From Minisyncoccota bacterium (GTDB lineage: Bacteria; Patescibacteriota; Minisyncoccia; Minisyncoccales; RBG-13-42-11), in the NCBI GenBank assembly GCA_028712445.1, contig JAQTPY010000002.1, positions 1-62,274 of the forward strand: a DNA stretch of 62,274 nt, written 5' to 3'. This document shows, in pieces, positions 5,487 to 50,302 of this stretch. The notes below the pieces were generated by a model. That model saw only the letters and a list, made by a program, of their open reading frames with translations, was not told where the DNA came from and searched no databases. The translations under genes were made by a program, and so were the position numbers. Within the stretch, counting starts at the first letter, position 1. Each line of letters starts with the position of its first letter.

Positions 5487-6377
5487 TTAGAAAAGTGCTG
5501 CGATAAACTCTATGGACTTATCCGTCTCAACTGGCAGAATCTCGTCTTCGAGAATATCGATAGCGTAGATCTTGGCTTTCCCCGATTCCTCGGCTATGAC
5601 GATGGGGAAAACGGGATGAGAAGTGGTCTTTTTTACATAACCTACCGGAACTGTGCTCCAATTGGGCTGTTTAAAAGCTCCCATCAGATTGATTACATAA
5701 TCTGAATCTTCTCCCAGATCCAGTTCGCTGCCTGCATCTGTCTTGAGAAAGCGCTGAACCTCTGTAAAATTGACCAGCGAGTATTTTTCTCTTTCAGGAC
5801 CGCGGATGCGGGCGTTGGGAAAAGTGGCGCGGAGCAGTTCCATGACTTCAGTCTGACTCATTGCCCTGGTTATTTTGGGCTCCGGAATAGCGCTGAAAGA
5901 GGAAGAGCCATTACTCTTTGCCAGGGTTGTTTTCAAATCAGTTATCTGCTTTGTCTGATTTTCCAGGGCAACTTTAACCTTGTTTACTTCCGTACTCGCT
6001 TTCTCTAAAGCCTGTTCTTGCTCGACTATGGCGTCTTCTTTTTGCCGTATCGCCTTGAGCAAATCATCGTTTCTCTTTGTCAGATCGGCAATAGTGGCAT
6101 CCCTGGTTGAAATTTGAACTATAAGATCGCTGCCCAGACCTGGCGTGTTTTCGCCGTTGCTTTTTGGCGTCGGCGTGGGTGTGTCTTTCGGCTCCTCAAA
6201 CCAGGGAATTTCTGAATTTCCCGGATCAGTTGGCGGTTTTGTCATTGTTTGATTCCGGGATGACTCAAAATTTTCTTGCCAGGACTGCATTTTATCAGGA
6301 GCAATAATATACACTATCCCAAAAATCAAAAGAACCATGCCCAAAAGTAACATCCCTGCCAGTAAAAATGCTTTCAT
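5487..6377 (-). CDS. Membrane-anchored coiled-coil protein with a conserved C-terminal domain (paralogue of 48023-48829)
   Basis: N-terminal TM, Pro/Thr linker, heptad coiled coil; C-terminus shares RIRGPER, EVQRFL, LGEDSDYV, PVG and PVF with the 48-kb gene; SD GGAGG. Confidence 0.8.
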   Translation of the reverse strand: MKAFLLAGMLLLGMVLLIFGIVYIIAPDKMQSWQENFESSRNQTMTKPPTDPGNSEIPWFEEPKDTPTPTPKSNGENTPGLGSDLIVQISTRDATIADLTKRNDDLLKAIRQKEDAIVEQEQALEKASTEVNKVKVALENQTKQITDLKTTLAKSNGSSSFSAIPEPKITRAMSQTEVMELLRATFPNARIRGPEREKYSLVNFTEVQRFLKTDAGSELDLGEDSDYVINLMGAFKQPNWSTVPVGYVKKTTSHPVFPIVIAEESGKAKIYAIDILEDEILPVETDKSIEFIAALF

Positions 6378-6419
6378 TTACTCCTCCTATGTTTAATATT
6401 TCTTCACTTTATCTAATTG

Positions 6420-6450
6420 TAAAAAAACAAAACAGGTGAAAACACCTGTT
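6420..6450 (-). terminator. Terminator-like hairpin in the 5' leader of 5487-6377
   Basis: Minus strand ACAGGTG-TTTT-CACCTGT followed by TTTGTTTTTTT; lies between the promoter and the start codon. Confidence 0.7.
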
Positions 6451-6498
6451 AAACTGAATAATCCTTGCTATTTTCGCTGTTACTCTCCCCACACTTTA

Positions 6499-6527
6499 AC
6501 AATAGAAAATCGAAGGCATGTTGTCAA
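6499..6527 (-). promoter_or_regulatory. sigma70-type promoter
   Basis: TTGACA-17nt-TATTGT on the minus strand. Confidence 0.65.
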
Positions 6528-6634
6528 CTGCTGAATTGTAAAAAAAATCAAAAAACTTCATTGTAGTTTAATTTTCCGAAGATAAAATAAAAGGAGAACC
6601 TTTATACCTGAATACTGTAAAGAGGCAAAAAGGG

Positions 6635-7273
6635 GTGAAAAGAATTTACATGTTAAAACAGGTTGCCGAAGCGCAAGAGGAGGAAAGAAAAAGAATTGCA
6701 AGAGACCTGCACGACGGCGTAGCTCAAACCTTGGTTCCGGTGCCAATCAAGATCAATCACTTGATGAAAAATAATGACTTTCCTGAAAATGTCGCTTCCG
6801 AATTGAGAGATGTAGAAGAAACCGTCTCTGGAGCGCTAAGGGAAATACGGTGCATTTGCACGGGAGTAGGACCCGGTCTCATGATAGATCTTGGTTTAAT
6901 TGACACCCTCACAACACTCGTCGGAAGCATGAGGAAAAGGGGCCAAACCATAATTACTCTCAATATTGAAGGTAATCATAGAAAATTGCCCAAAGAAACT
7001 GAACAAGCCCTGTTTAGAATAGCTCAAGAAAGTCTAAATAATATCTGGAAACACGCTGAAGCAAAGAAAGCTACACTAAAAATTGCTTACGAAAAAAACA
7101 GAATATTCATGAGTATTTCCGACGACGGAAAAGGTTTTGATACAAATGTAAAAAGCAGCGGAAACCTTGGATTAAGAATCATCCGGGAGCGGGCGCGTTT
7201 ATTAAATGCTGATTTGCGGATTGACTCCGCGAACGGCAAAGGAACAACTATCAGCGTAACAATAAAAAAATAA
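6635..7273 (+). CDS. Sensor-less HisKA_3 + HATPase_c histidine kinase (NarX/UhpB/DegS type)
   Basis: EEERKRIARDLHDGVAQ H-box; FRIAQESLNNIWKHA N-box; SDDGKGF; GNLGLRIIRER; no TM or input domain. Confidence 0.9.
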   Translation: MKRIYMLKQVAEAQEEERKRIARDLHDGVAQTLVPVPIKINHLMKNNDFPENVASELRDVEETVSGALREIRCICTGVGPGLMIDLGLIDTLTTLVGSMRKRGQTIITLNIEGNHRKLPKETEQALFRIAQESLNNIWKHAEAKKATLKIAYEKNRIFMSISDDGKGFDTNVKSSGNLGLRIIRERARLLNADLRIDSANGKGTTISVTIKK

Positions 7274-44816: not shown

Positions 44817-45875
44817 CTATCTATTCAAAACCTCCCGGATTCTTATCTTGGCTATCTTTGCCTGCAACATCTTTCTGTTCTTATATTCCCGAAGTTGCTT
44901 TTTCCTTTCATCCATCCACTCTTCCAATCTAAGAATGTTAGACTTGAAGATCCAGATCATCATTAAGGTTAAAAGCAATGGAAGGAAGAAAGAATCAAAG
45001 AAGATGTTGTTTGTGAAGCCGGTAGGAATGTTGGTTGCTCCGCTGACGGTACCCTCCTTATTGACAGTCACCTGGGACGCATCCGAACTCTTGACCTTAT
45101 CGTTGTAGGCCATTGCCGTATTGGTCAATTTTGTTTTTCCGAAACTGAACTTTCCCGCCTCAGCCACCCTGGCATGAAAGACTATGGTTTTTGTCTGATT
45201 GGCAGCAATATTACCTATATTTACCCCCTTGGTAATATCACCGCTCAGACTGACTCCATTCATGCTCAAATTGCCAATATATGTAAGCTTGTCTGGTAAA
45301 GCATTCTTGACCGTCACGCCGCTTAAATCCGTCCCTCCGGCTTTAACCTGAATTTTGAAAGCCAGAAGATCTCCGGGTTTGGCAGTGACAGAATCGGCAA
45401 AAACATTGGGATTTGCAATAAGACCAACCAAACTGGTGATATTTATTGACGCTGTGGCCACTTGCGAAGTTCCGGTTTTATCCTCTGTGTCGTCCCAAGG
45501 AATTTGTTCAGTTTCCACATCGTAGTCCCAAGGAGACTCGCTGCCATCTCCTATGACGCTCTCGCCTCCGGTATCATTGAAATCCCACGGTGTTTCTGTT
45601 TCCATTTCGTCATCCCAGGGCAATTCGCTTACCGGGTTTTGAGTCAAAACCAATGTCTGACTTGCTCCGGGATCCGTGGTGGTTCCCTGATCCTCCTCTT
45701 GATCATCCCAAGCTATATCGTTGAGAACAGTCGGTTCTGAAGTTACTTCTGAAACTGTATTGTTCCTTGCCGATTGATCGCCGGCATCAGCAATATAGTC
45801 CCAATCGGCGCTTACCACACCGGCAGGAGCGATCTGAAAAAGAATCAAACCGAGTGTTAAGAAGATTTTTAACAT
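44817..45875 (-). CDS. Exported surface protein: acidic WD-motif region, DUF11-like Ig domain, IPTG motif + C-terminal TM
   Basis: Signal peptide; AKPGDLLAFKIQV..VTVKNALPDKLTYI..IGNIAANQTKTIVF..LTNTA; TNIPTG then TM and basic tail. Confidence 0.75.
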   Translation of the reverse strand: MLKIFLTLGLILFQIAPAGVVSADWDYIADAGDQSARNNTVSEVTSEPTVLNDIAWDDQEEDQGTTTDPGASQTLVLTQNPVSELPWDDEMETETPWDFNDTGGESVIGDGSESPWDYDVETEQIPWDDTEDKTGTSQVATASINITSLVGLIANPNVFADSVTAKPGDLLAFKIQVKAGGTDLSGVTVKNALPDKLTYIGNLSMNGVSLSGDITKGVNIGNIAANQTKTIVFHARVAEAGKFSFGKTKLTNTAMAYNDKVKSSDASQVTVNKEGTVSGATNIPTGFTNNIFFDSFFLPLLLTLMMIWIFKSNILRLEEWMDERKKQLREYKNRKMLQAKIAKIRIREVLNR

Positions 45876-45972
45876 AATTTTCCCCCATTTATTAATATCT
45901 TTTCGACCTTTAATCTTAAAAGAATATCTATGGGTTTACCCACAGATTTTCTTGCACCTGAAAGTAATCGAT

Positions 45973-46113
45973 AAAACAAAAACAGGTCAAAAACCTGTCC
46001 AAAAACCATCAAACTTTCACTTCCCTTCTCCCCCTTTACGTCCCCTCTCTCCCTATTAATAAGGACGCTTAGAAAGTTTAGCATTAAACTATTAAATTGT
46101 TTCCTCTACTTTT
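45973..46113 (-). promoter_or_regulatory. Structured 5' leader with terminator, copy A
   Basis: AACAATTTAATA, GTTTA/TAAAC stem, 29-nt core 46039-46067, ACAGGT/ACCTGT terminator 45982-45998. Confidence 0.7.
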
Positions 46114-46142
46114 AGAATATAAAAATTGAGGAGACGTGTCAA
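46114..46142 (-). promoter_or_regulatory. sigma70 promoter for leader A
   Basis: TTGACA-17nt-TATTCT. Confidence 0.75.
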
Positions 46143-46144
46143 TA

Positions 46145-46861
46145 TCAGGAATCTTCCGATGATAAAACTGCTTCTATAAAAATTCTTTGAATATTTTTCC
46201 CCGGAGGCCAGCAGCTTATGAGCAAAAGTATATTTTTTGAATCAACCAGCTCATTTTTAGCCGGTTCCTCTCCCCTGTTTATGATGAATTTTTGGCTGAA
46301 AATATATTTGTATTCTTTTTCATTAAAAATAATTAGTATTTCATCTCCTTCGGCAAGATCGTTAAGTTTGCTGAAAACCCAGTCAAACTTTATCTTTGGC
46401 CAGCCAGGAGGCGCGCTGTGCCCCAAAATTATAGTTTGTCCAACCCTCCCGGGAAGAACTGATTTAGGATAATGAATTACACCCTTATTAAGCGACTTGT
46501 GAAGAATCGTCTCGTTCTCATCGGGATTATCAAAAAATATTATAGGAGCTTCAATGCCGATCTTTGGAATTTTAATCGATCCCTCCTTCTCCAAAATCAC
46601 CTCTTCTTCAATTTCCGGAACAAGACTTTCCAATTCAGCTCCACTCAAAATTATTTGACTTTCACTCTTTCGAAACAAATTCTCTACCATTCCCGAAATC
46701 ACTCGATAATTGAAAACCCAGCCGTAAGTGTCAAAATTGAGGGAAATAAAAGAAATCGCAAAAAAAACAGCAAAATACTTCCAGATTTTGCCTACAAAAG
46801 AAACATTGCTCGCGCAAGAAGAAATATGTTTAAACTTTTTCTCTCTATTCTCTCCCCTCAT
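46145..46861 (-). CDS. Sortase-family protein
   Basis: N-terminal TM; IKIPKIGIEAPI, LNKGVIHYP, ILGHS, LISCWPPG..QR (His/Cys/Arg). Confidence 0.88.
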   Translation of the reverse strand: MRGENREKKFKHISSCASNVSFVGKIWKYFAVFFAISFISLNFDTYGWVFNYRVISGMVENLFRKSESQIILSGAELESLVPEIEEEVILEKEGSIKIPKIGIEAPIIFFDNPDENETILHKSLNKGVIHYPKSVLPGRVGQTIILGHSAPPGWPKIKFDWVFSKLNDLAEGDEILIIFNEKEYKYIFSQKFIINRGEEPAKNELVDSKNILLLISCWPPGKNIQRIFIEAVLSSEDS

Positions 46862-46900
46862 CCTATTTTTATTATAGCAAAATTTTGTTAAAATGTAGCA

Positions 46901-47962
46901 ATGCAGGTTTTTGAATTTCTTTTTAATCCCAAAATCAAAGACAATTTAGTTTTTGATAGTTTTTGCTACGATCCTCAAAACATCTACGAAAAAAGGATGG
47001 GAAGTCTTTATATGGCAGGATCATTAAAGAATGTCCTGCCTCAAAACCTTTATTTCCTGAATAATTTAGCTAAAGCAATCAGAGAAAGATATTATAAAAC
47101 AATTTCTGCTACGCCTGAGAAATCGCTGAAAGAGACCTTGAGGAAAGTTAATGATTATCTTGAAAAGGTGGCAAAAAGTGGAGACGTAAGCTGGCTGGGG
47201 AACTTAAATTTTACCGTCCTTTCGCTAAAAAACTACGAACTTAATTTCACTAAGGTCGGTGACCTGAAAATCTATCTGATAAGAAAGGGGCAGATCATAG
47301 ACATCGATCAGAAACTTAAATTTGAAGAAATTGAACCCTATCCGCTGAAGATCTTTGGCAACATCGTCTCGGGGACTCTAAATGAAGACGATGTAATTTT
47401 GATTGCGACCAAGGAAATTTCTGATTTCTTTATCCAGGACAATCTCATGAATGAATTCTCAAAAATCTCTCTGTCCATTTCCGATTGTCCGGAAAAAAGA
47501 AATTTAAGCGCGGTTAAGAAGGTTTTTGAAAACAAAAAAGAAAGACTCGGTCTTATTTCCGGCGTTTGTCTTTTTGTCGGCCTCAGCAAAGAATCGTTGC
47601 CGAAGGAAAAAGAAATCGTGGCTGCCGGAAAAAAGAAACTCAACTTTGCAAAAAACGTCGCCTCCTTCCTGAAACCTCCCGCGATGCCCAAAACCATTGC
47701 AACCATTAAAAAACCTGTTTTTTCTTTTACTCTTCTTGAAAAAATAAAAAGGATAAGAATCTATTTAAATTTGATTTTTTTAAATATTACGCGCCTCCTA
47801 TTCACCTCGATCCGCCTAATTTCAAACCTGCGCGGAAAATGCAAAAAATCTTCCCGTTTGAATTTCAATACTTTTTTGACTAAGAATAAAAACTGGTGTC
47901 TGGTTCTCCTTTTTATAATCGTCCTTTTTATCGGCTCCCTTATAACAAATCTGACTGATTAA
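46901..47962 (+). CDS. Hypothetical protein, possibly a degenerate PP2C/PPM-like fold, with C-terminal TM
   Basis: LNFTKVGDLKIYLIRKGQIIDI, SGTLNEDDVILIAT resemble PPM strands; metal-binding Asp motifs not evident. Confidence 0.5.
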   Translation: MQVFEFLFNPKIKDNLVFDSFCYDPQNIYEKRMGSLYMAGSLKNVLPQNLYFLNNLAKAIRERYYKTISATPEKSLKETLRKVNDYLEKVAKSGDVSWLGNLNFTVLSLKNYELNFTKVGDLKIYLIRKGQIIDIDQKLKFEEIEPYPLKIFGNIVSGTLNEDDVILIATKEISDFFIQDNLMNEFSKISLSISDCPEKRNLSAVKKVFENKKERLGLISGVCLFVGLSKESLPKEKEIVAAGKKKLNFAKNVASFLKPPAMPKTIATIKKPVFSFTLLEKIKRIRIYLNLIFLNITRLLFTSIRLISNLRGKCKKSSRLNFNTFLTKNKNWCLVLLFIIVLFIGSLITNLTD

Positions 47963-47995
47963 AAAAAGGGGGGATGGGAGTTTCCCCCTTTTATT
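47961..47995. terminator. Bidirectional terminator (approximate coordinates)
   Basis: A tract, G-run/C-run hairpin, T tract between convergent genes. Confidence 0.6.
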
Positions 47996-48022
47996 TTATT
48001 AAGTTCAGGACCACGGAATTGA

Positions 48023-48829
48023 CTAGAAGAGCACTACTATGAATTCTGCTGACGGGTCATTTTCGATGGGCCATACTCTGTCCGCTCTAACATCCACGCC
48101 GTAGACCTTGACCACACCGCCTGATTCGGCAAGAATGATGGAGAAGACAGGATTGGTGCGAGTAGGTTTGACGAAACCGACCGGAATAGTATCCCAACCT
48201 GGCTGAGATTTAATGGCGCCCTGAAGATAAGCCACGTAATCGGAATCTTCACCTAGAGCCAGTTTATCACCCTGGTCTGAATTCAGAAAACGCTGAACTT
48301 CTGAAAGCGAGATTACGCCGTATTGCTTCCTCTCCGGCCCCCTGATCCGGCACTCTGGGAATGTCTGGCGAAGAACGTTCATCACATCGGCCTGGTTAAC
48401 CATCTTAGATATGCTCGGAGCTGAAGTTGTAGCCGTAGTGACAGCTGTTGACTGGGTGACTGCGGCTGCTGCTGCCGGAGCTCCCTTGCCAAGCAAGCTC
48501 TGCAAACTGTCTATCTTGCTCTGCTGACTGGCAATGATCCCCTCTTTTGCAGCTACTTGCTGGAGTAAAGCCGTGTTTTTTGCCTGGTAATCATTGACCG
48601 TGGATCGCAGCGCTGCCACTTCAGAGCTGGTATTTGCCCGGGCTGAGGCCAGCATGGGAGCCATCACAATAATGGCTATGGCCAAAACCGCGATAGAAAT
48701 GTTCCGCCAGTTATTTTTGAACCAATCTCCCACCTTCCGCGCAGTGCTCCTTACTTCAGTAGGTATACCTCCCGGTACGGGCGCCGTCCGTTCGACTGCC
48801 CTTTCCTCTCTCTCTTCTGGGTTTTGCAT
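48023..48829 (-). CDS. Membrane-anchored coiled-coil protein (paralogue of 5487-6377)
   Basis: TM, coiled coil, Ala/Thr linker, shared C-terminal domain; ATG 7 nt after GGAGG. Confidence 0.8.
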   Translation of the reverse strand: MQNPEEREERAVERTAPVPGGIPTEVRSTARKVGDWFKNNWRNISIAVLAIAIIVMAPMLASARANTSSEVAALRSTVNDYQAKNTALLQQVAAKEGIIASQQSKIDSLQSLLGKGAPAAAAAVTQSTAVTTATTSAPSISKMVNQADVMNVLRQTFPECRIRGPERKQYGVISLSEVQRFLNSDQGDKLALGEDSDYVAYLQGAIKSQPGWDTIPVGFVKPTRTNPVFSIILAESGGVVKVYGVDVRADRVWPIENDPSAEFIVVLF

Positions 48830-48952
48830 TTCATTTCCTCCTTTTGATTTCCTTCCTTGCAAACTTTAGTTTCGTTGCCAGACCCCTGACTATTAAACAC
48901 ATTATCTTTTCTTACAATTTTTACCTCCTTCTTTCTTTCAATTTTTGTTTGG

Positions 48953-49103
48953 AAAAAAACAAAACAGGTCAAAAAGACCTGTGAACACATCTTATAATTA
49001 TTCTCCCTCCCCCTACGTCCCCTCTCTCCCTATTAACAAGGACGTATATTGTTATGCTCATTCAAAAATTAGAATTGAGCTATTAAATTGTTCTCTCAAT
49101 TTC
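48953..49103 (-). promoter_or_regulatory. Structured 5' leader with terminator, copy B
   Basis: AACAATTTAATA, GCTCA/TGAGC stem, 29-nt core 49016-49044, ACAGGTC/GACCTGT terminator 48964-48982. Confidence 0.7.
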
Positions 49104-49133
49104 AAGATAACAAAAAACAAGGCCGTCTGTCAA
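49104..49133 (-). promoter_or_regulatory. sigma70 promoter for leader B, overlapping the rplL terminator
   Basis: TTGACA-18nt-TATCTT. Confidence 0.55.
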
Positions 49134-49147
49134 ATGCCTTGTTTTTT
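49112..49147 (-). terminator. rplL terminator
   Basis: AAAAAACAAGGC-12nt-GCCTTGTTTTTT. Confidence 0.85.
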
Positions 49148-49156
49148 GTATATAGT

Positions 49157-49576
49157 TTATTTCAATTCAATCTTAGCTCCAGCTGCTTCGAATTTCTTCT
49201 TTAAATCTTCTGCCTCCTCTTTCTTTGCATTTTCTTTTACAATCTGAGGGGCGGCTGCGGCGGCGTCAACCAGGTCCTTGGCTTCTTTCAATCCTTTTCC
49301 AGTAGCGTCTCTCACAATCTTTATTACTTCAATCTTTTTATCTCCCACAGATGTGAGCTGGACATTGAAGGATGTTTTTTCTTCAGCTTCAGGAGCGGCG
49401 CCTGCAGCGGGAGCTGCAACTGCCATTACCGGAGCGGAAGCCGAAACCCCGAACTTCTTTTCCAGAACTTTAACCAAATCAGCTAAATCCAGAACACTCA
49501 TCTTTTCAATTTCACTGACTAGTTTCTGAAACTTTTCAGGAACTTCAATTTCTTCTTTTTTTATTTCTTCTGCCAT
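49157..49576 (-). CDS. rplL: 50S ribosomal protein L7/L12
   Basis: [44 protein letters not shown]. Confidence 0.98.
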
Positions 49577-50273: not shown

Positions 50274-50302
50274 AGTATATAGCAAGCCTTGAATTTTGTC
50301 AA
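50274..50302 (-). promoter_or_regulatory. sigma70 promoter of rplJL
   Basis: TTGACA-17nt-TATACT. Confidence 0.8.

Follow-up and report, generated by a model that had tools for sequence, protein, structure and literature searches.

Contig JAQTPY010000002.1 of a Minisyncoccota bacterium, a stretch of 62,274 nucleotides (nt) that was analysed at its full length and is called the window below, carries on its minus strand two similar 5' leaders, A (46142..45972) and B (49133..48952), each in front of a gene for an envelope protein. These leaders, and the possibility that they control transcription of the genes behind them, are the subject of this report. The assignment of the organism to the candidate phyla radiation, made in an initial annotation of the locus, agrees with its rplL gene, the relatives of which are from Paceibacterota/Patescibacteria. 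Both leaders start with a TTGACA promoter, which is followed in the same order by a short 5' block, a small hairpin (P1), a 29-nt core that forms hairpin P2 and is followed on its 3' side by a GGGGGAG run, and a hairpin with a U-tract (T1). These four parts had been described before and were all found in their places on the minus strand (Table 1).

Table 1. Features of the leaders and of the genes associated with them. Positions refer to the window unless another contig is named; TM, transmembrane.
Feature	Position	Strand	Description
Promoter A	46142..46114	-	TTGACA-17-TATTCT; 10/12 to consensus; homologous to promoter B
5' block A	46101..46089	-	AACAATTTAATAG / AACAAUUUAAUAG; near 5' end of predicted transcript
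Hairpin P1 of A	46089..46076	-	GUUUA-AUGC-UAAAC; 5 bp, 4-nt loop
Core hairpin P2 of A	46067..46039	-	CGTCCTTRTTAATAGGGAGAGAGGGGACG: CGUCCUU / loop AUUAAUAGGGAGAGA / GGGGACG; 29 nt, 7 bp, 15-nt loop
Purine run of A	46037..46014	-	AAAGGGGGAGAAGGGAAGUGAAAG
Terminator T1 of A	46000..45972	-	(GG)ACAGGU-UUUUG-ACCUGU(UU), then UUUUUGUUUU
Second hairpin H2 of A	45947..45926	-	AUCUGUGGG-UAAA-CCCAUAGAU; weak U-tract
Promoter B	49133..49104	-	TTGACA-18-TATCTT, upstream TG; 10/12 to consensus
5' block B	49092..49080	-	AACAATTTAATAG / AACAAUUUAAUAG; same block as leader A
Hairpin P1 of B	49080..49056	-	GCUCA / 15-nt loop / UGAGC; 5 bp
Core hairpin P2 of B	49044..49016	-	CGTCCTTRTTAATAGGGAGAGAGGGGACG; 29 nt; loop position 1 is G, not A
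Terminator T1 of B	48982..48952	-	ACAGGUC-UUUUU-GACCUGU, then UUUUGUUUUUUU
Leader D1	6535..6400	-	TTGACA-17-TATTGT, UAAAGUGUGGGGAGAG, terminator ACAGGUG-UUUU-CACCUGU + UUUUGUUUUUUU; precedes gene B paralogue 6377..5487
Leader D2	contig C19, 2215-2345	-	TTGACA-17-TATAAG; precedes gene B paralogue
Gene A	44817..45875	-	secreted DUF11-domain protein (PF01345, E 2e-9); C-terminal IPTG motif, TM segment, basic tail
Sortase gene	46145..46861	-	directly upstream of leader A; PF04203, E 3e-16
Gene B	48023..48829	-	268 amino acids; N-terminal TM segment, coiled coil, conserved C-terminal domain; one of 4 paralogues
Gene B paralogue, behind D1	5487-6377	-	
Gene B paralogue, behind D2	contig C19, 1194-2195	-	
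Gene B paralogue, fourth	contig C5, 29660-30167	-	without such a leader

The homology between A and B extends from the -35 box to the U-tract of the terminator and not beyond. It is significant over the full length including the promoter (nhmmer E 3e-12 and 7e-12), and the A/B covariance model matched in the genome at 69.9 bits (E 3e-12). Around the core approximately 40% of the positions differ, whereas inside it (CGUCCUURUUAAUAGGGAGAGAGGGGACG) only one of 29 does. The 28/29 identity reported earlier was confirmed, and with up to three mismatches allowed the window held two matches to the core against none in 100 shuffled sequences. In the 5' block, variation among the sister copies described below is limited to two middle bases, AAU-UU/CC/CA-AAUAG. 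Both leaders contain, on the transcribed strand, a G+C-containing stem-loop followed by a U-tract, as is typical of intrinsic terminators, and a terminator scan called both of them terminator-like (46000..45980 with the tail TTGTTTTATC; 48982..48964 with the tail TTTGTTTTTT). In leader A a second hairpin (H2) lies further downstream; the 32 nt from there to the Shine-Dalgarno sequence of the DUF11 gene are identical in A and in its sister copy A'. Start codons follow the -10 boxes after ~239 nt in A and 242-275 nt in B, and the leader RNA itself is predicted to be roughly 130-140 nt long.

The pattern TTGACA-N16-18-TAnnnT was found at 77 sites in the genome, 69 of which are intergenic. This corresponds to a ~75-fold intergenic enrichment, the intergenic share of the genome being taken as ~11% from a crude open reading frame (ORF) map. 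The pattern is evidently the housekeeping promoter of this organism and, given its enrichment, leaders A and B are very probably transcribed from credible sigma-70-type promoters. Promoter A begins right after the stop codon of the sortase gene (46147..46145), and leader B follows rplL (stop at 49157) and its separate terminator. A promoter scan detected no further promoter-like sites between the terminators and the start codons in A and B; each leader has the same orientation as its gene and separates the start codon from the sole promoter detected, a layout also seen for the shorter leaders D1 and D2. Terminator and promoter are interleaved at the start of leader B: the hairpin that terminates rplL, AACAAGGC-(loop)-GCCTTGTT (window 49150-49112, minus strand), has the -35 box TTGACA of leader B in its loop, and the -10 box comes after the U-tract of that terminator.

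Pattern search, nhmmer and the covariance model agreed that the 697-kb genome contains exactly two copies of the full A/B-type leader, 3 kb apart and on the same strand. Copies at random positions and orientations, as expected of a dispersed repeat or a miniature inverted-repeat transposable element, were not found; with only two copies, both co-oriented before genes, this candidate was ruled out. Searched against Rfam 15 at the gathering score, the window returned six tRNAs as its only known RNA families. Even at E≤10 over 45600..49400 nothing overlapped either leader, the models for cyclic di-GMP (c-di-GMP), cyclic di-AMP (c-di-AMP), T-box, PyrR and L10-leader elements included. The element therefore deserves to be called undescribed, as was proposed initially. 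Homologues beyond A and B, on which the earlier proposal had counted, did not appear: neither in the genome nor in 400 genomes of the order did covariance models return a credible one, the best E of the structure-aware model R1 being 1e-3 per genome, i.e. noise, with unconvincing alignments. In 60 relatives a core 20-mer with up to three mismatches was matched at the noise level of the reversed-pattern control. Three exact or degenerate core patterns gave chance matches in unrelated phyla only among the GTDB representatives, the JGI metagenomes gave one chance match in a purine-rich contig, and none of 80 Patescibacterial rplL loci had a B-like leader beside it.

Further copies of the core were seen only on fragmentary contigs from landfill metagenome runs that also hold this genome. 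A' is a 251-nt contig ~87% identical to leader A, the sequence of which was reconstructed from difference tables. B' is a B-like fragment after rplL that carries the core, and type C, from runs X1 and X2 (contigs of 780 and 1089 nt), comes from another organism or strain and shows the core in a third context with different flanks. Only 30-nt loose ends of type C are visible (in RNA sense ..GCGCAAAUCAAAUAGCUCACAAUGAGCAAAAAAG-[core]-UCGGGGGAGAGAGGAAUAUAUUG..), and these had no meaningful match in the genome. The core is unchanged in A', in which the rest of the leader differs from A by ~13% (P ~0.02 for zero changes in 29 nt); the 30 nt between terminator and H2 are scrambled between the two. 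Across all these searches the leader is restricted to one genus-level lineage.

Folding calculations gave high pair probabilities for P2 (0.74-1.0 in A; 0.52-1.0 across A, A' and B) and for the terminator (0.99-1.0 in A; 0.87-1.0 across the three). RNAalifold added weak pairing only, between the purine run and the 3' arm of the terminator. The stability of the whole-leader fold is unremarkable in A (z -0.7) and moderate in B (z -2.4). The terminator stems of A, A', B, D1 and D2 share an unvarying base of five pairs (ACAGG/CCUGU). Above it, D2 has C-G at pair 6 where A, B and D1 have U-A, and pair 7 differs between B (C-G), D1 (G-C) and A (U.G); the predicted pairs of the upper stem covary among the five copies. 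In H2, pair 4 is U-A in leader A and C-G in A', a compensatory change. The covariation originally claimed for P1 was borne out only in part. Two double changes indeed distinguish A from B and C (GCUCA/UGAGC in B and C), with loops of 4, 15 and 3 nt. However, they represent only two independent lineages, one of the two covarying pairs is mismatched (C.A) in A', and in a core-anchored alignment the 3' arms of P1 in A and B stand at non-homologous positions. P2 is invariant, which is evidence neither for nor against its pairing.

Weak hits of the covariance model (window 6423..6542; contig C19 2235..2344) led to two shorter leaders, D1 and D2, which are homologous to one another (E 2e-4). In both, the promoter is followed by UAAAGUGUGGGGAGA, ~45 nt, a terminator based on ACAGG/CCUGU with a UUUUGUUUU tail, and a further ~45 nt up to the gene start. 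Their likeness to A and B is limited to the promoter spacer, the purine run, which as GUGUGGGGAGA is related to that of leader A, and the terminator; the 29-nt core is absent. Compared with D1 and D2, leaders A and B have an extra 5' module of block, P1 and core, which separates the -10 box from the UAAAG..GGGGAG run. Because the genes flanking D1 diverge from its intergenic region, the terminator of D1 cannot serve an upstream gene. Each of the four genomic leaders stands immediately before a gene of the same orientation, the product of which is secreted or membrane-anchored. The genes behind B, D1 and D2 are paralogues that have diverged to 33-44% protein identity and still keep a leader. 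Divergently adjacent to D1 is a gene for a soluble HisKA_3-type histidine kinase (6635-7273, plus strand; LHDGVAQTL motif), which may be a regulator of the D1 promoter.

The four members of the protein B family match one another at E 1e-20 to 1e-54. They share an N-terminal TM segment and a conserved C-terminal domain of ~125 amino acids (motifs FPxxxIRGPE and LGEDSDY), and a coiled coil is present in three of the four. The family had no Pfam match, no homologues in the 60 relatives and, by pattern, none in GTDB; on these searches it appears to be confined to this lineage. The product of gene A, in contrast, is a candidate sortase substrate, and in a tblastn search of the genome it matched itself alone. 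The initial statement that the duplicated leader does not reflect a gene duplication thus holds for A versus B, the genes of which are unrelated, but not for B, D1 and D2, which form a gene-plus-leader family. Similarly, the proposed surface-protein regulon retains A and B, both co-oriented before envelope-protein genes, and gains D1 and D2 before membrane-anchored paralogues.

The surroundings of gene A indicate how its leader arrived. In this genome the sortase gene and the DUF11 gene are set apart by 270 nt (45876-46144), in which the promoter and a pair of U-tract hairpins are located. Six related loci have 4-13 nt and no leader between the DUF11-type gene and its upstream neighbour, which in one of them (L011) is annotated as sortase; likewise, no leader was found in the upstream regions of DUF11 homologues (seven loci). 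Because the DUF11-type gene abuts the upstream gene in the six related loci, leader A is an insertion relative to them. By this comparison, a promoter-leader copy was captured ahead of the sortase substrate gene.

On these grounds we tentatively favour a reading in which A and B are lineage-specific, cis-acting 5' leaders that work as transcription attenuators, with the core as a sequence-specific recognition site; it is plausible rather than established. A strong sigma-70-type promoter would start an RNA of ~130-140 nt composed of 5' block, P1, P2 core, purine run and intrinsic terminator. The envelope-protein gene would be reached only by polymerases reading through this terminator and, in A, also past the second hairpin. 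The core would be bound by a trans-acting factor, either a protein or another RNA, which sets the frequency of read-through. The promoter-leader unit would belong to a family that travelled with the paralogous genes behind B, D1 and D2, and one leader copy, without its gene, would have been inserted between the sortase gene and that of its DUF11 substrate, giving rise to A and uncoupling the two. What speaks for attenuation is the homology from promoter to terminator, the quality of the promoters, the fixed orientation at four loci, the retention of leaders by diverged paralogues and the invariance of the core. The conservation of the core base for base, loop included, makes a sequence-specific recognition site the most likely function and a folded metabolite pocket a less likely one. 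We regard the cassette as a probable control element specific to this lineage; conditional termination and a role of the core as sensor are what we infer.

Several points weigh against this attenuator. In the ensembles of A, A' and B the terminator forms alongside P2, and no competing antiterminator fold is predicted; termination could be constitutive. The layout of promoter, leader and terminator is common in this genome and not special to these genes, as 15 of the 36 promoters with leaders of 60-600 nt have a terminator-like hairpin before the next gene, that of rplJ (promoter 50302..50274) among them. No candidate for the trans-acting factor emerged from the genome, in which CsrA is absent and the NusG family is represented by one gene. 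Finally, the comparative depth amounts to two genomic copies and three fragmentary metagenomic ones.

The homology of A and B spans exactly the stretch from promoter to terminator, and past the terminator the next 30 nt are scrambled in the comparison of A with A'. This would also be expected if A and B were two paralogous stand-alone genes for small RNAs (sRNAs), ~130 nt long and equipped with a promoter and a terminator apiece, with a position near envelope genes that is incidental or with an action in trans through the core. In the predicted folds the 5' end GAAACAA pairs with the 3' tail UUGUUUU, an arrangement that can be likened to many stable sRNAs, and an invariant sequence would suit a base-pairing seed or a protein-binding site. 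However, four units are co-oriented upstream of genes, three of them have stayed with paralogues through divergence to 33-44% identity, and between terminator and gene start there is no promoter-like site from which the genes could be expressed separately. Sites complementary to the core are not in excess in the genome either (44 ten-mer matches, including the two loci themselves, versus 9-114 for shuffled cores). We regard sRNA genes as rather unlikely, if still the alternative most worth keeping in mind.

It is also conceivable that nothing is sensed at all. A duplicated promoter cassette could carry a constitutive, partial terminator that fixes expression at a low level, comparable to the rplL-rpoB attenuator of E. 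coli, and the core could have been kept by recent copying or gene conversion, or as an element of RNA stability or processing. The frequency of leader terminators in this genome and the lack of a predicted switching fold suit this explanation, and with only two copies, 3 kb apart on the same strand, gene conversion is possible. Its weakness lies in the core. Copies in other organisms or strains have diverged flanks around an unaltered core, for which gene conversion within one genome cannot account, and A and B have diverged by ~40% around it against 1/29 within it. We consider such a passive cassette unlikely.

The initial annotation went one step further than attenuation and described the leaders as riboswitch-like. 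If they were riboswitches, the 5' block, P1 and P2 would constitute a small aptamer for a metabolite or an ion and the terminator its expression platform. The order of promoter, conserved structured block and terminator is appropriate, the double changes in P1 between A type and B/C type with their variable loops point in this direction, and aptamers of small size exist, preQ1-I and guanidine-III being examples; lacking any Rfam match, this one would be a new class. This step could not be followed. The conserved element is a single invariant 7-bp hairpin (P2) that does not covary, P1 is disrupted in A', terminator and antiterminator folds that exclude each other are not predicted, and homologues end with very close relatives, i.e. 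within one genus-level lineage, unlike nearly all validated classes. In addition, the putative aptamer is missing from D1 and D2, which retain the terminator module. The second messengers c-di-GMP and c-di-AMP, considered initially as ligands, found no backing: no Rfam match was obtained, and searches for GGDEF and DAC domains, positive in control genomes, revealed no such cyclase in this genome. A tiny invariant element, the missing switching fold, the very narrow range and the sister leaders without an aptamer make a metabolite or ion riboswitch doubtful, and among the regulatory readings it has the least support.

An AUG is located exactly 17 nt before the core in A (46084..46082), A', B (49061..49059), B' and C, in spite of an unconserved 14-nt linker (A and B identical at 3/14). 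It opens an ORF, M-x5-V-L-[IV]-N-R-E-R-G-D-V..., that runs into or through the terminator (30 codons in B, with UGA in the terminator loop, 71 in A and 49 in A'). That ribosomes translating this ORF across the purine run and into the terminator control termination is nevertheless very unlikely, since no copy has a Shine-Dalgarno sequence before the AUG, as real genes have here, the changes between A and A' are approximately neutral (3 synonymous, 7 non-synonymous), ORF length and C-terminus are not conserved, and the core is invariant at third codon positions too, which a constraint on the peptide would not explain.

Two further candidates were rejected. Core and purine run together (46053-46023 and 49030-49005, minus strand) provide two of the eight canonical G-quadruplex motifs (G3+N1-7 x4) in this genome of 40% G+C, but A' and C have only GG as their fourth G-tract, so that the motif is not conserved. 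The leader sequence AAUAGCUCA(C) equals what we take to be a 10-nt stretch of the 23S GTPase-associated centre (this assembly contains no 23S); mimicry of rRNA was dismissed, since a match of this length, a 10-mer, would be expected from chance alone.

Knowledge of gene regulation in ultra-small episymbiotic bacteria is scant. If the leader is conditional, it would represent a compact and portable control module for surface proteins, the molecules expected to mediate host attachment, copied ahead of a sortase substrate gene so that an otherwise conserved operon was split. Its 29-nt hairpin would be a concrete and small target for biochemistry. There is a slim chance that 5' block, P1 and core together are a new small sensor, either a riboswitch or the site of an RNA-binding regulator, gating transcription of host-contact surface proteins in an episymbiont. 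That sensor would then be the first native regulatory RNA class defined in Patescibacteria, with a sortase substrate and an anchored coiled-coil family under its control. Even if nothing is sensed, promoter-leader capture would have reshaped operons in a reduced genome. The practical reach is limited for now, the element being confined to one poorly sampled lineage. In the literature we found no native riboswitch or leader RNA described in Patescibacteria, where riboswitches appear only as a proposed engineering tool.

Among known systems, the layout is reminiscent of Clostridioides difficile, in which c-di-GMP-I/II riboswitches precede genes for sortase-substrate adhesins in the same order of promoter, structured leader, terminator and sortase-anchored or envelope gene. 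Leaders A and B differ from these in that they do not match RF01051 or RF01786, their genome lacks a diguanylate cyclase, and their conserved part is a single invariant hairpin for which no competing antiterminator is predicted. A and B also resemble paralogous multi-copy sRNA families terminated independently of Rho, such as Qrr, in being two copies, here of ~130 nt, that have separate promoters and terminators and an invariant internal segment. By contrast, A and B are fixed in position and orientation before genes that have no separate promoter, and they have no enriched targets.

Leader B invites comparison with the rplL-rpoB intergenic attenuator and the L10 (rplJ) leader, as it stands directly after rplJ-rplL and contains a terminator that transcription has to pass. 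It differs in being served by a promoter of its own and in preceding a gene other than rpoB. Moreover, the cassette occurs also away from ribosomal genes (A), RF00557 did not match, and the count at Patescibacterial rplL loci was 0/80.

Protein-dependent attenuation and antitermination leaders, such as the PyrR site, TRAP, the BglG/SacY ribonucleic antiterminator (RAT) and the LoaP- or EAR-type systems, also place a short, sequence-conserved hairpin in the 5' leader, ahead of one terminator or several, and an invariant core fits recognition by a protein. In detail each of them departs from A and B. The AGAGAGG loop of PyrR sites is present in the A/B core, but neither the PyrR model RF00515 nor those of other leaders matched. 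RAT overlaps its terminator, which the core does not, and the regular spacing of (G/U)AG repeats needed by TRAP is absent. With one NusG-family gene, the genome has no paralogue of the LoaP/RfaH kind. Leaders A and B are an undescribed motif set in a familiar architecture.

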